Source of the DNA: Eledone cirrhosa
Taxonomy: Eukaryota
Direction: 5' to 3'
Assembly (NCBI GenBank): GCA_964016885.1
Contig: OZ024742.1
Span: 346,518,001-346,582,000 of the forward strand
DNA length: 64,000 nt
In this document: piece by piece, positions 7,483 through 39,754 of the stretch
How positions within the stretch are numbered: position 1 is the first letter of the stretch
Layout: each line of letters begins with the position of its first letter
The notes under the pieces: model-generated
Seen by the model: the letters and a program-made list of their open reading frames with translations, nothing else
The model's database searches: none
What the model was told of the DNA's origin: nothing
Position numbers and translations under genes: made by a program

Positions 7483-7560
7483 ACTCCTGTTGAGAAGCCC
7501 GAGGGTTATCTGACAGCCACAAATTTTTGGCGAAACTCTATCTGTAGTTTGTCCAGGAGT
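7483..7560 (+). ncRNA. Type I hammerhead ribozyme, U3-A8 core variant
   Basis: 7-bp stem I actcctg/caggagt, core TTGAGAA (7490), stem II gcc/ggc, GAAA (7532), GTC site at 7551-7553. Confidence 0.7.
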
Positions 7561-7839
7561 TTAATAGTTATTGAAATGGTTAGTACATTTTAATTCATTT
7601 TTTCCGGTTAATTATTTTCTGTTTGTTTATAGATTATATCCATTGCCCCAAAGTGGTTTCCGACCCATGTAATTCAAAACACACTTCTTTGTGTGTTTAT
7701 TTCTATATATTATAAAGGGCCCAGTTTTTATACTTTGAGCTCATTAATTACAGTGTATTAACGTGAGTTTTTAACTCTGTTTTTCATTTGTGTGTATATA
7801 TATATATATATATATATATATATATATAAACACAATATA

Positions 7840-8203
7840 TATAGAGAGAAACACACAGATACATGCGGACATATACATATACATGAATATATCCACACAT
7901 ATCCCTGTGTCAGTGGTGCCAACCTCAACCGAGGTTGCTCTATGAATAACTGGGACAGAACTATCCGAATGGATTAGACTGATTCAAGATTCTATCTCGC
8001 ACATTGCAGACGTGTTTTGAAATCCTTAGTGAGGTATCCCCTTGATAAGTCGGCAGAACCTCACAAAAACTCTATATCTCTATGATCTAGCTTTTTTGCA
8101 GAAAATACCACGAACCTACGTAGTCGGGGACTGAAGAACCAGCTAGGTATGATATATCTTATTACTAATTATATCTAATGTTTCTTCTCTCTTCATAATG
8201 TAC
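7840..8203. mobile_element. Older fold-back copy of the 573-bp HHR element family (see 32758-33762)
   Basis: 7840-7982 resembles 33190-33310; 8030-8203 resembles the reverse complement of 32758-32930; flanked by (TA)n. Confidence 0.75.
8037..8130 (+). ncRNA. Hammerhead ribozyme, U3-A8 variant, partly decayed (GAAC)
   Basis: tcccc-TTGATAA-gtcggca...taccac-GAAC-CTACGTAGTC-gggga; stem I covaries with tcctc/gagga in the 33-kb copies. Confidence 0.6.
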
Positions 8204-8574
8204 TATATATATATATATATATATATATATATATATATATATATATATATATATATATATATATATATATAAATCAGGAGAGAAGATTGACATGGTTTGC
8301 AATACAAAAAAGGTTTTTAATCTCATTGCTGACAATTGTTTCTCTGAACTGGTAGGTCTAGAGATCGCTATTCGCTTGTTTTCACGTTACTCGATCGCCA
8401 ATACAAAATTATAACCAGTCAGTTCTTTGGAGCATGCGAGAATGAAGAGAATATACAGGCATGAATGGAATATATATATATATATATGTATATATATATA
8501 TATATATGTATATATATATATATGTATATATGTATATATATATATATGTATATGTATATATATAGGAAAAGGCA

Positions 8575-8672
8575 TAGGAAAAGGCCCCTGAACCTTTTCC
8601 TATACCCGCTCTACTACCCAAAGTATCGAGTACTCGTTATGGTCCACCTGATTCCTTACCACACTTCATTCG
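8575..8672 (+). mobile_element. Short tail fragment of the intact-PLE family
   Basis: CCTATACCCGCTCTACTAC...GTTATGGTCCACCTGATTCCTTACCAC resembles 36220-36300 and the reverse complement of 33836-33920. Confidence 0.7.
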
Positions 8673-36116: not shown

Positions 36117-36210
36117 ACCCCTTGAGAAGATCGGCTATTTAAATACCAGGATAAATTTTCATTTAGTCCAGAATTAGCCGTCGAAACGGCTTGAGCTCAG
36201 CTGTCGGGGT
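36117..36210 (+). ncRNA. Type I hammerhead ribozyme, U3-A8 variant, 5' pLTR
   Basis: acccc/ggggt stem I, TTGAGAA (36122), ga(t)cggcta/tagccgtc stem II, GAAA (36183), ACGGCT/AGCTGT stem III, GTC at 36203-36205. Confidence 0.8.
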
Positions 36211-36231
36211 CTTACTGGTTCCTATTACCCA

Positions 36232-38553
36232 GTGCAGCAAAGTGTATTGAGTACTTTGGTGCGTTATGGTCCACCTGGTTCCTTACCACATTTCCTTCGT
36301 TATCTAACTCCTACTCCCGTAGTAGAGCACTTTCCGACCCTACCACGCCGTATCCAGACTTTTCCGCTAAGCTCAATTCATTTCACCCGCACCATGCGAA
36401 AACACAACATTGACTTCTCTACCAAGAACATCCCAATCCCACCGAAAAAACTTTACCTTCGGATGCTCACGCAAAAAATCGATCTATTTGCGAAAAGACT
36501 TAGATGGAGAACTTTTTTCTATGACAGATATTGCGACAACCAAGACTTCGGCACCAAGGAGAGATTCGGATTTATTACCTACAAATCTTCGCCCCTGAAC
36601 CCCTTGCTCGCACCCTTCGAGAATGACCTCTTCCAACTGGTCAAGAACATTAAATTTAAACCCAGACACAACCGATTCCTACAAAAACTCCGTAGCAACT
36701 TAACAGAGTATGATAACACAAATGACATCATGGTGCATTCGGATAAAACTGGGAACCTATACTTTGTCAACCCTGACAGATACCACACACTGATCAGGAG
36801 CAGCCTAAACTCCACCTATAAAAAGGCCAACCACTCTTGCATCGAGGACATAAATCGAGATGGACAACAAATCACCTCCAGCCTCGGGGTCGCCGACCGC
36901 ACGGAACCTCTAGACCCACGGACACCATACTTCACACTGAAGGACCATAAATCCGATTTTGACCGTAAACCCTCTATCAGGCTTATTAACCCAACGAAGT
37001 CTGACATAGGGAGAATCGGCAAAAAAATCCTAGACCGCGTGATACCAAAAGTCAAGCAACACACCCGACTTAGCCTATGGATCAACACCCAGCAAGTAAT
37101 CTCCTGGTTCAGCAATATGGAGGATAAACGAGAAACTAAATTCATACAGTTCGACATAGAGAGCTACTATGCTTCAATCACCTTACCGCTACTTACTGCC
37201 GCCTTGGACTTCGCCGAAACACTTGTGCCCATCACCGACCAGGAAAGAAAAATCATGCTCCACGCCAGGAAGACAGTCTTACTCTTTGACGACTCTAAAT
37301 GGATAAAAAGAGCTCCCGACTCACCCTTCGACGTCAGCATGGGCGCCACGGATTCGGCGGAGGTCACAGATCTTATAGGATTATTCCTAATAGCCAAACT
37401 CACTGATATGTTTCCTGCATTCGGTGGTGGATTGTACCGTGATGATGGGCTCCTTACCCTTAAAGGGTACAACCCCAGTAGTACAGATCGGGTCCGGAAA
37501 CAATTAATCAGATTCTTCCGCGACTGGGGATTTAAAATAACCCTACAAACGTCCCTGACCCGAGTAAACTTCCTGGACGTGACCCTCGACCTCGAAAACG
37601 ACCTGTACTACCCATACAGGAAACCTAATGACAATCTGCACTACATCCACCGCCGATCAAACCATCCTAGGAACATCACAAACAACCTGGTCAAAAACAT
37701 CTCCCTCCGCATATCCCGTTTGTCAGCTAATGAGCGGATATTCGATGAACATGCGCCTTATTACAACCAGGCCCTCAAGCGGAGTGGTTTCCGGGAGGAA
37801 ATATCCTACTGTCCAGCTCCCATTAGCGGAACCAGCAGGAGACACCGCCGCTCACGCAATGTAACATGGTTCAATCCTCCCCACAATGCAGAGGTGACAA
37901 CTCCCATCGGGAAACTATTCTTTAGGCTCATTGAAAAACACTTCCCATTACAACACCGCTACCACAACATAATTAACAAAAATACCATCAAACTCTCTTA
38001 CAGCACTACACCAAACTTCGCACAAAACATCGTCTCCTCTAACAACAAAAAACTCAACCCCGATGGCAGAAATAACCTAAATAGCAGTGGAGAACCGACC
38101 AGGAGGTGTAACTGCCCGGATAGATCTATTTGCCCACTCGACAATAGATGCAGAGACCGTAATGTGATCTACCAGTGCAACGTGAGGACGGATACCTCCA
38201 ACAAAGCCTATATAGGACTTACCGCATGTGACTTCAAGACCCGGCTATACCAACATAGACATACCTTCCGAAACCCGGCCCGGCGTCACGCCACTACACT
38301 TTCGGGCCACATATGGGACCTCAAGGACAACAACATCACCTATGATCTCACTTGGAGATTACTGTCCAGAGCCAATTCTTACACGGGAGGACGCCGTCCG
38401 TGCAATTTATGCTCGGAGGAAACTTTACAAATGCTGTTTTCGACGGACCAACTCCTAAACAAGAAAGATGAACTGGTCACTGCATGTAAACATAGATTGC
38501 GTAGGACTTACCTCGCCCTCAAACCCCATAATGACCCGGGGGGGGTAGACTAG
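36232..38553 (+). CDS. PLE reverse transcriptase plus GIY-YIG endonuclease (first ATG 36394, 719 aa)
   Basis: RT motifs FIQFDIESYYASI, FDVSMGA, GLYRDDGL and VNFLDVTL; WFNPP; CNC..CPL..C; VIYQC...YIGLT...R...H; CNLCSEE; no interruptions. Confidence 0.95.
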   Translation: MQQSVLSTLVRYGPPGSLPHFLRYLTPTPVVEHFPTLPRRIQTFPLSSIHFTRTMRKHNIDFSTKNIPIPPKKLYLRMLTQKIDLFAKRLRWRTFFYDRYCDNQDFGTKERFGFITYKSSPLNPLLAPFENDLFQLVKNIKFKPRHNRFLQKLRSNLTEYDNTNDIMVHSDKTGNLYFVNPDRYHTLIRSSLNSTYKKANHSCIEDINRDGQQITSSLGVADRTEPLDPRTPYFTLKDHKSDFDRKPSIRLINPTKSDIGRIGKKILDRVIPKVKQHTRLSLWINTQQVISWFSNMEDKRETKFIQFDIESYYASITLPLLTAALDFAETLVPITDQERKIMLHARKTVLLFDDSKWIKRAPDSPFDVSMGATDSAEVTDLIGLFLIAKLTDMFPAFGGGLYRDDGLLTLKGYNPSSTDRVRKQLIRFFRDWGFKITLQTSLTRVNFLDVTLDLENDLYYPYRKPNDNLHYIHRRSNHPRNITNNLVKNISLRISRLSANERIFDEHAPYYNQALKRSGFREEISYCPAPISGTSRRHRRSRNVTWFNPPHNAEVTTPIGKLFFRLIEKHFPLQHRYHNIINKNTIKLSYSTTPNFAQNIVSSNNKKLNPDGRNNLNSSGEPTRRCNCPDRSICPLDNRCRDRNVIYQCNVRTDTSNKAYIGLTACDFKTRLYQHRHTFRNPARRHATTLSGHIWDLKDNNITYDLTWRLLSRANSYTGGRRPCNLCSEETLQMLFSTDQLLNKKDELVTACKHRLRRTYLALKPHNDPGGVD

Positions 38554-39660
38554 GGCTATAACACCCCACTTGCCGATTTTGCAATGGGTAACCCCTGCTT
38601 GCCAAGGAAGACGTAAGATCTTCTTTGTATTCTTTTATCGCTTCCTTTATTTCCTTCCCCCCTCTCTCCTTAGTCCTTCTACCCCAGCTCTTCTCCTTTG
38701 TCGGCGTCTTTTCTCGCCCACCCGAGGCTGCCCTTTGGCCCCATGTAGCCTTAGTACCCCCACCACCCCCTCCCCTAGTCTATGATAGATTTGGCGGACT
38801 CCGCCCTTTATAGCAGTTGGCTTAGACCCCGGATACTTGCCCCCTTTTTCCGACCGCTCCCACTATTCTCTGTGCCCTCTATATTTCTTAGTGGCACTTA
38901 TGCCTTATTTTTTCGTTTCAGTATTTCTTGCTTCGCTTTTCTTCTGGGCGGGGTGGATTCTGAATTTATTTCTCCGTATTCTACCTTTATTTCGTACGAA
39001 CTTTCATGTAGCTTGTTTTAGATCTTTTAGAGTTAGCATTAGTATATATTTTTCTCGGGACTCAGAATTATTATCTCGTACAAGTTCACTTTGCTGCACT
39101 GGGTCGTTGCTGGCCCGGGATGGAAACCTTTATTGTTTATTTCGTAGTAGTCTCTTTAGTATTTTGGCCCCTTTTGTTGACCCGTCACCGTATCATTTAC
39201 GTACTTATACCTCTTAAAAGGGTCCTTGCCTATACCGTCCCACCTAGTTCTTTTACTTATTTCGTTATTTCTTTATTTATTTCTTTCTTTACTTCTTTCT
39301 TTCTTTCTTTATTTTATTCTAGCCTAACAATAGCCTGAGACCTAGGTCGTAGAATTTAATTTACTTTACTTTTTTCTTTACACTTATTTGCTTTTCTTCA
39401 CTCTCAGTATTTTTTCTTTCCTATATATTTCTACCCCCCATTGTTCTACCTACCGTTCCGACTTCCTCCCCCTCCCCCTCCCCTGTATCTTCTTTGACCT
39501 CATGCCCAGCTGTAGCTGGCACTACCAACGCTTGATTGGGTCTACTCCACCCCCTCCCCTCTTTCTCCTACTGGCAGGTTTAGCCACCATCTCCCCTACT
39601 AATTTGCAACCACAGAATTACTACTGATTTTTGACAATCACTTTGACCATATATGGAATT

Positions 39661-39754
39661 ACCCCTTGAGAAGATCGGCTATTTAAATACCAGGATAAAT
39701 TTTCATTTAGTCCAGAATTAGCCGTCGAAACGGCTTGAGCTCAGCTGTCGGGGT
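39661..39754 (+). ncRNA. U3-A8 hammerhead in the 3' pLTR
   Basis: Same motif as 36117-36210; GTC at 39747-39749, 20 nt before the element end. Confidence 0.8.

Follow-up and report, generated by a model that had tools for sequence, protein, structure and literature searches.

A 64,000-nucleotide stretch of the Eledone cirrhosa genome (contig OZ024742.1, positions 346,518,001 to 346,582,000 of the forward strand; hereafter the window) carries type I hammerhead ribozyme motifs in which the core CUGANGA is replaced by UUGANAA, so that core positions 3 and 8, which pair in the active fold (PMC3884650), are U3-A8 and not C3-G8. The locus raises two questions: how common this core is, and how one pair comes to replace the other. 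We propose that these are motifs of Penelope-like elements and of dependants that lack an open reading frame (ORF), and that their 3-8 pair probably switches by way of a tolerated U·G wobble. The evidence for the switch comes from relatives of the motif at 20698 of the window.

A loose pattern for the 20698 family, run against the genome (3.0 Gb, microsatellite-rich; all family counts are from genome-wide pattern searches), returned relatives in three core states. With the pattern anchored additionally on GAAAC and the 3' half of the motif excluded from it, the superfamily comprised 1,140 U3-A8, 368 U3·G8 and 185 C3-R8 matches, and reversed controls gave 0. The C3-R8 class includes about 180 C3-G8 motifs, C3·A8 accounting for 4 of the first 100 listed, while the U3·G8 relatives have only the wobble and no Watson-Crick pair at 3-8. 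Copies in which GUC and its stem I partner were free of mismatches numbered 19 of 28 for U·G, 22 of 26 for C-G and 14 of 21 for U-A. In a covariation set of ten hand-picked rows with short stem III, of the U-A and U·G types, 96% of cells were paired and two-sided changes were present in 4 of 15 pairs, above slid controls; these changes fall in stems II and III.

To see the core states without selecting on them, the loop II hairpin alone was used as a core-blind pattern, which gave 275 matches, 52 of them on contig 1. There, 28 were already in the U·G list, and 20 of the other 24 were fetched: eight were U·G (three with a further core change), two C-G, one U-A, one A·G and one U·C, and seven had no readable core. 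U3·G8 was thus present in 36 of 41 readable copies, which argues that it is a founder state and not a product of decay. CpG decay was considered as a source of the series and rejected: it could turn UUGACGA into UUGACAA, a core seen in 1 of the 41 readable trunk copies and in 3 of the first 100 U3-A8 matches listed, but it cannot produce U3·G8.

Trees were built from 82 copies and then from 63 with the 7-nt core masked, and had the same shape; the second omits L243, L226 and L225 (long or truncated) and 16 of 26 near-identical C-G rows. One half of the tree is a ladder with U3-A8 rows at its base (L287, L277), 19 U3·G8 rows on successive nodes, and then C3-G8. All C3-G8 rows form a single clade (support 100/97) nested in U3·G8, and along the trunk 0.51 changes per site separate the first U·G node from that of C-G. 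Alternative trees that grouped the U·G rows to the exclusion of C-G (p-AU 2e-51) or joined C-G directly to the basal U-A rows (p-AU 3e-40) were rejected. In the other half are the copies from the window, further U-A subfamilies and another U·G clade of five rows, which contains two UUGACAA copies. All four C3·A8 rows are tips and single copies. The ladder is oriented by the length of stem III, which is 32-35 nt in the basal trunk copies and in the outgroup subfamilies of the other half and 80-88 nt further along, and its direction is loosely backed by the median tip lengths (0.052 for basal U·G, 0.017 for late U·G and 0.029 for C-G copies). Followed along the trunk from L217 to L276, stem III lengthens into a long hairpin, first from about 34 to 80 nt and later to 86-88 nt.

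When five basal U·G copies were compared with four late ones, none of the 38 hammerhead-frame columns differed, as against 62 of 245 others (p 7e-5), and the sole core change was at N7. No ORF belonging to the superfamily itself was found, the two ORFs that adjoin copies being other insertions. L297 and L298 had been candidates for autonomous elements with U3·G8 and U3-A8 motifs and were rejected, their ORFs being separate insertions; the one at L297 is 93.5% like another element, which carries its own C3-G8-type motif.

We judge it somewhat more probable than its opposite that this tree is a stepwise record, in which U3-A8 gave way to a functional U3·G8 core that went on transposing for about 0.5 substitution per site before C3-G8 arose, while C3·A8 founded no subfamily. 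Part of that reading, and held with the same restrained confidence, is that the wobble core is catalytically sufficient in its natural scaffold, contrary to mutant scans of model hammerheads. Ribozymes of this kind cut precursor or multimeric RNA into units, which are then closed into circles and reverse-copied by a Penelope-like reverse transcriptase (RT). In the mechanism we propose, the motifs would cut their own transcripts after the predicted GUC or GUA, cleavage would process a precursor or multimeric RNA, and the Penelope-like RT would copy the product into (TA)n sites; U3·G8 masters would have retained enough cleavage for continued transposition. The 3-8 pair would then be converted from U-A into C-G, or the reverse, by two transitions with U·G between them, the C·A route presumably not being tolerated. 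Such a route would make U-A common in nature, and G-C would go unseen because two transversions through unpairable states are needed to reach it.

Several points weigh against this reading. A full scan of pairwise mutants in one type III hammerhead found rescue by the G-C swap alone and low activity for all other mutants of the region (PMC9901934), and metazoan minimal hammerheads are described as weakly active in vitro (PMC4209133). The groups compared in the tree tests were named after the tree had been seen; the tree itself has 377 columns and is midpoint-rooted, with a tool warning that two long branches meet near the root. More than half of the 38 frame columns were fixed by the search pattern, although the core-blind copies show the same frame letters as those found by pattern. 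Six mid-trunk U3·G8 copies (L221, L240, L220, L231, L218 and L239) are predicted to pair their core with stem II (core unpaired 0.06-0.40). Finally, the superfamily that unites the window motifs at 32278 and 40074 shows no clear wobble subfamily: its first 100 matches listed, scored by eye, were 80 C-G, 12 U-A, 3 U·G and 5 other mismatches. As a side observation on the buried cores, the 5' arm of stem II in L240, L220, L231 and L218 contains 7 nt complementary to the copy's own core (core unpaired 0.06-0.28), and in L224 and L232, where N7 changes from C to A shortly before the C3-G8 change, the core is predicted to be more open (0.63-0.82).

The mutant scan, low for all but the G-C swap, and the buried mid-trunk cores would also suit a ribozyme that was dead or nearly dead during its U3·G8 phase, the copies having spread without self-cleavage or by other processing and the frame having been kept for RNA shape or RT recognition. 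In the same direction, same-strand neighbours within 1 kb were found by eye for 39 of the first 100 U3-A8 matches listed and for 0 of the first 100 U3·G8 matches, and some Penelope-like clades are reported to proliferate without hammerheads (PMC8557442). We nevertheless regard this explanation as unlikely, while a phase with little or no cleavage during the U3·G8 stage is possible. The unpaired core letters and GUC stayed fixed over 0.51 changes per site while the free N7 varied, C3·A8 founded no subfamily, and the lineage ends canonical. The young C3-G8 subfamily is likewise mostly single, with neighbours for 2 of the first 100 C3-R8 matches listed; tandem arrays track lineage, not core type.

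A weak 3-8 pair might instead have been selected as a brake, since a long, stable stem III permits cutting of monomers, which would reopen circles and favour slow U-A or U·G cores. This accommodates the stem III inserts of 32-88 nt in the U3·G8 superfamily, where a short palindromic helix III would by contrast limit cleavage to dimers (PMC4209133), and the genomic copies that run intact across the predicted cleavage site, as from a circular or uncut template. It is harder to reconcile with U3-A8 motifs that have a short palindromic helix III (32831 and 11661 in the window, F5 and F7 among the clusters of the census below) or with the return of the longest-stem-III subfamily to C3-G8, and we give it even less weight. 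An origin of the U3-A8 and U3·G8 motifs by chance or by decay after insertion is scarcely credible: although 2 of the 12 listed window sites are decayed, 7483 has no second copy and single changes after insertion yield a few U3·G8 cores (about 0.5% in the 36117 family; L235), there are thousands of identical U3-A8 copies, shuffled and reversed controls are near zero, and U3·G8 is the core of 36 of 41 readable copies in its subfamilies and occupies inner branches of the tree, so that the counts refute it for the families and leave it possible for 7483 alone.

How common the core is was asked with a census of 139 segments, each 10 kb long and taken at fixed positions along large contigs (1.39 Mb), using a descriptor that allowed a stem III of at most 55 nt and a score of at least 9. 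The 69 motifs found comprised 46 C3-G8, 19 U3-A8 and 4 mismatched cores (C·A, C·C, G·A and U·G, once each), with no G3-C8 or A3-U8 among them; four controls gave about 1.5 matches each in all. At a score of at least 8, 71 matches fell into 27 clusters: 16 C-G, 8 U-A and 3 mismatched singletons. With a looser descriptor the figures were 52 C-G, 22 U-A and 12 other cores, but 8-16 matches also arose in its controls, so its extra matches are noise. The density is about 50 hammerhead motifs per Mb, which extrapolates to roughly 150,000 in the 3.0-Gb genome, about 40,000 of them U3-A8.

An earlier note on this DNA had proposed that U3-A8 is a common core of ribozymes associated with Penelope-like elements and that searches requiring CUGANGA would miss it. 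The census bears out its frequency, at 19 of 69 motifs and 8 of 27 clusters, and with 4 of 69 mismatched, such cores are far from being as frequent as paired ones. Searches restricted to CUGANGA would lose about a quarter of the motifs of this genome, a loss of the kind already published in 2014. The association with Penelope-like elements holds in part: at least three U3-A8 families adjoin Penelope-like ORFs (36117 in the window and clusters F5 and F7 of the sample), but the largest U3-A8 families of the window, 32831 and 20698, are ORF-less tandem repeats and not autonomous. A picture of paired cores only is also incomplete, U3·G8 being fixed in whole subfamilies among the 20698 relatives. 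Trees of RT and endonuclease fragments do not decide between one and several origins of U3-A8 among autonomous elements; few families in them are labelled, and the labels of the L093 second ORF, L297, L298, L301 and L305, given according to locus, are wrong or unsure. A separate observation concerns the predicted cleavage site, which is GUC in 6 of 8 U3-A8 clusters and in 3 of 16 C3-G8 clusters (mostly GUA or GUU). The bias (Fisher p 0.02) is a hint only, as the families are related; the pair 32278 (U-A, GUC) and 40074 (C-G, GUA) fits it.

In the window, the motif starts given in that note were correct (Table 1). A structure-based descriptor that permitted any letter at positions 3 and 8 found 10 of the 12 sites to be complete U3-A8 motifs with stems I-III, GAAA and GUC or GUA; the remaining two, 8037 and 32278, are decayed. 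Positions 3 and 8 are U-A, and so Watson-Crick-capable, at every one of the 12, and stem I is just 3 bp long at 11548 and 11661. Over 200 shuffles of positions 1-51200 a single U3-A8 match had a stem I of at least 6 pairs, and a shuffle count this close to zero excludes chance for the strong U3-A8 motifs. An Rfam scan (E<=1) returned no U3-A8 site among the matches listed (150 of 172); the sole window hammerheads among these were a C3-G8 pair at 45.4 and 45.8 kb, matched to model HH9 below cut-off. As Rfam also missed most C3-G8 motifs, its miss is not core-specific.

Table 1. Hammerhead motifs and associated elements in the window
Feature	Position	Strand	Description
Type I hammerhead	7483..7560	+	UUGAGAA, U3-A8, 7-bp stem I, GUC
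Decayed copy of 32831 family	8037..8130	+	U3-A8; GAAC for GAAA (A15.1 lost); 84% to 32831
Short hammerhead motif	11548..11583	-	UUGAAAA, 3-bp stem I, palindromic helix III, GUA; left arm of inverted repeat
11548-type motif	11661..11696	+	Right arm of inverted repeat 11447-11797
616-bp tandem repeat	20120..21701	+	About 2.6 units, no ORF, ends at (AT)n; retrozyme-like
Type I hammerhead	20698..20833	+	U3-A8, long stems II and III, GUC; superfamily also with U3·G8 and C3-G8
20698 motif, next repeat unit	21314..21449	+	
Decayed U3-A8 motif	32278..32363	-	GAGA; mismatches at first stem I pair and in stem II
Type I hammerhead	32831..32920	-	UUGAUAA, U3-A8, palindromic helix III, GUC; tandem repeat of ~570-595 bp
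32831 motif, second copy	33404..33493	-	573 bp on
U3-A8 motif	33927..34020	-	In inverted terminal-repeat copy (33912-35092) of Penelope-like element
5' pseudo-LTR (long terminal repeat)	35093..36225	+	1130/1133 bases identical to 38637-39769
Type I hammerhead	36117..36210	+	UUGAGAA, U3-A8, GUC; 184 bases upstream of ORF start
Intact 719-aa ORF	36394..38553	+	RT, then GIY-YIG-type endonuclease
3' pseudo-LTR	38637..39769	+	Ends at (TA)n
U3-A8 motif	39661..39754	+	Within 3' pseudo-LTR
Canonical C3-G8 motif	40074..40153	-	GUA; homologous to U3-A8 copy at 32278

The note's count of at least five U3-A8 families can be kept for five multi-copy ones (36117, 32831/8037, 20698, 32278 and 11661) but not for 7483, whose 21-nt pattern matched only itself genome-wide. 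Reversed patterns for 36117, 32831, the 20698 superfamily and 32278 gave 0-1 matches. The 36117 family had 2,213 pattern matches, 2,179 of them U3-A8; position 3 was altered in 17 (14 C3·A8, no C3-G8) and position 8 in another 17. The 32831/33404/8037 family, ORF-less and tandem with a spacing of about 591-595 bp, had 6,443 matches and U3-A8 in 99 of the first 100 listed. The 32278 motif and the C3-G8 motif at 40074 are about 70% alike, and a joint pattern gave 633 matches. Close copies of the 11661 motif were present in 7 of the loci compared; a family about 80% like it (L043, L090, L091, L132, L176) has UUGAAAA but GCAA for GAAA in all copies seen.

With one type I hammerhead per tandem unit and no ORF, the 20698 and 32831 families look like non-LTR retrozyme-like repeats. 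The 616-bp unit of 20698/21314 forms an 11-unit array elsewhere in the genome. It is covered by contigs of three sequencing runs of unrecorded kind, in which neither position 3 nor position 8 has a listed variant and which are silent on expression; none of the runs containing the retrozyme-like unit is listed as RNA.

By its motifs, layout and (TA)n insertion, the element at 35093-39769 is a Hydra-type Penelope-like element. A single ORF lies between pseudo-LTRs, with a truncated inverted copy upstream and TA runs flanking both element ends. In the stop-to-stop frame the marks DKT, CxCx5C, CxxC and CxH stand at residues 189, 644, 742 and 770, and CxxC and CxH surround the E and N residues. Pfam and PDB sequence searches with the ORF protein gave no match; its Atlas look-alikes include HTH_animal, GIY-YIG and RVT_1 in a share of members. 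Membership of Naiad was rejected because the endonuclease is C-terminal. The Hydra clade as described by Craig et al. 2021 (PMC8557442) shares the C-terminal endonuclease, DKT, the CxCx5C linker, CxxC and CxH, as well as (TA)n insertion and a hammerhead in the terminal repeat. It differs in being described with canonical hammerheads where this element has U3-A8, and with RWK where it has RWR; the likeness is one of motifs.

Other motifs and repeats accompany these. Further C3-G8 motifs of several families begin at 9688 (-), 19127 (+), 22668 (-), 27933 (+), 28170 (-), 31518 (+), 41583 (+), 45408 (-), 45794 (+), 48246 (-) and 49781 (-), the motif at 10762 (+) belongs with those at 9688 and 49781 but has C3·C8, and endonuclease fragments lie near several of the C3-G8 motifs of the window. 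The 616-bp array starts at the edge of a 227-aa open frame at 19443-20126 (-) with a weak DUF6451 match below cut-off, which by resemblance is probably the end of a LINE-type (long interspersed nuclear element) ORF. The remaining repeats are a 54-bp satellite of about 237 copies (51218-64000), a 22-bp repeat (1-1215) and a 59-bp GC-rich repeat (49059-49476).

That U3-A8 is a common core in such elements, and one missed by descriptors, is already known. Cervera and De la Pena 2014 (PMC4209133) reported it in the Cercyon elements of Schistosoma, where their first descriptor missed it, with about 1,300 hits retrieved versus about 2,000. The S. mansoni elements resemble those described here in their type I motifs in terminal repeats, abundant U3-A8 and, in some families, palindromic helix III; the Eledone elements differ in their Hydra-clade motifs, in comprising several ORF-less tandem families, and in one superfamily whose stems II and III are long and whose tree unites three core states. 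Perreault et al. 2011 (PMC3088659) described the same natural U3-A8 covariation and stated that such ribozymes were active in earlier in vitro work, although its account, in the sections available, is of scattered examples with no lineage or wobble series.

The ORF-less families have counterparts as well. Non-LTR retrozymes are ORF-less tandem repeats with type I hammerheads that are cut to monomers and circularised (Cervera and de la Pena 2020, PMC7229834), and an origin from Penelope-like elements has been argued for them (bioRxiv 10.64898/2026.07.22.740005). Those of metazoans share with the present families the ORF-less tandem layout, one type I hammerhead per unit and the Penelope-like link, and differ in unit length, which is 220-350 bp in the published examples (PMC7229834) versus about 570-650 bp here. 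Single natural U3·G8 cores are in print: a Saccoglossus Penelope-like motif in Fig. S3 of PMC4209133, which draws no comment in the available main text, and, in a halophile, a variant that combines U3 and G8 with an insertion of 2 nt (PMC7151607). In the open-access literature we found no description of amplified U3·G8 subfamilies or of a U-A, U·G, C-G series, and what appears to be new is a wobble series at the 3-8 pair on one family tree.

It is a textbook idea that G·U pairs serve as intermediates in the helices of structural RNAs. The pair in this series is, by contrast, tertiary and in the active site, and closely related natural scaffolds that carry U-A, U·G or C-G make the viability of G·U at a tertiary pair of the catalytic core directly measurable. 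The series bears on the contrast between the U-A found in nature and the G-C that a laboratory scan favours, and it tests how much cleavage a retrozyme needs to spread. For the counting of hammerheads, U3-A8 matters in this genome by the roughly one quarter of motifs that CUGANGA descriptors lose.

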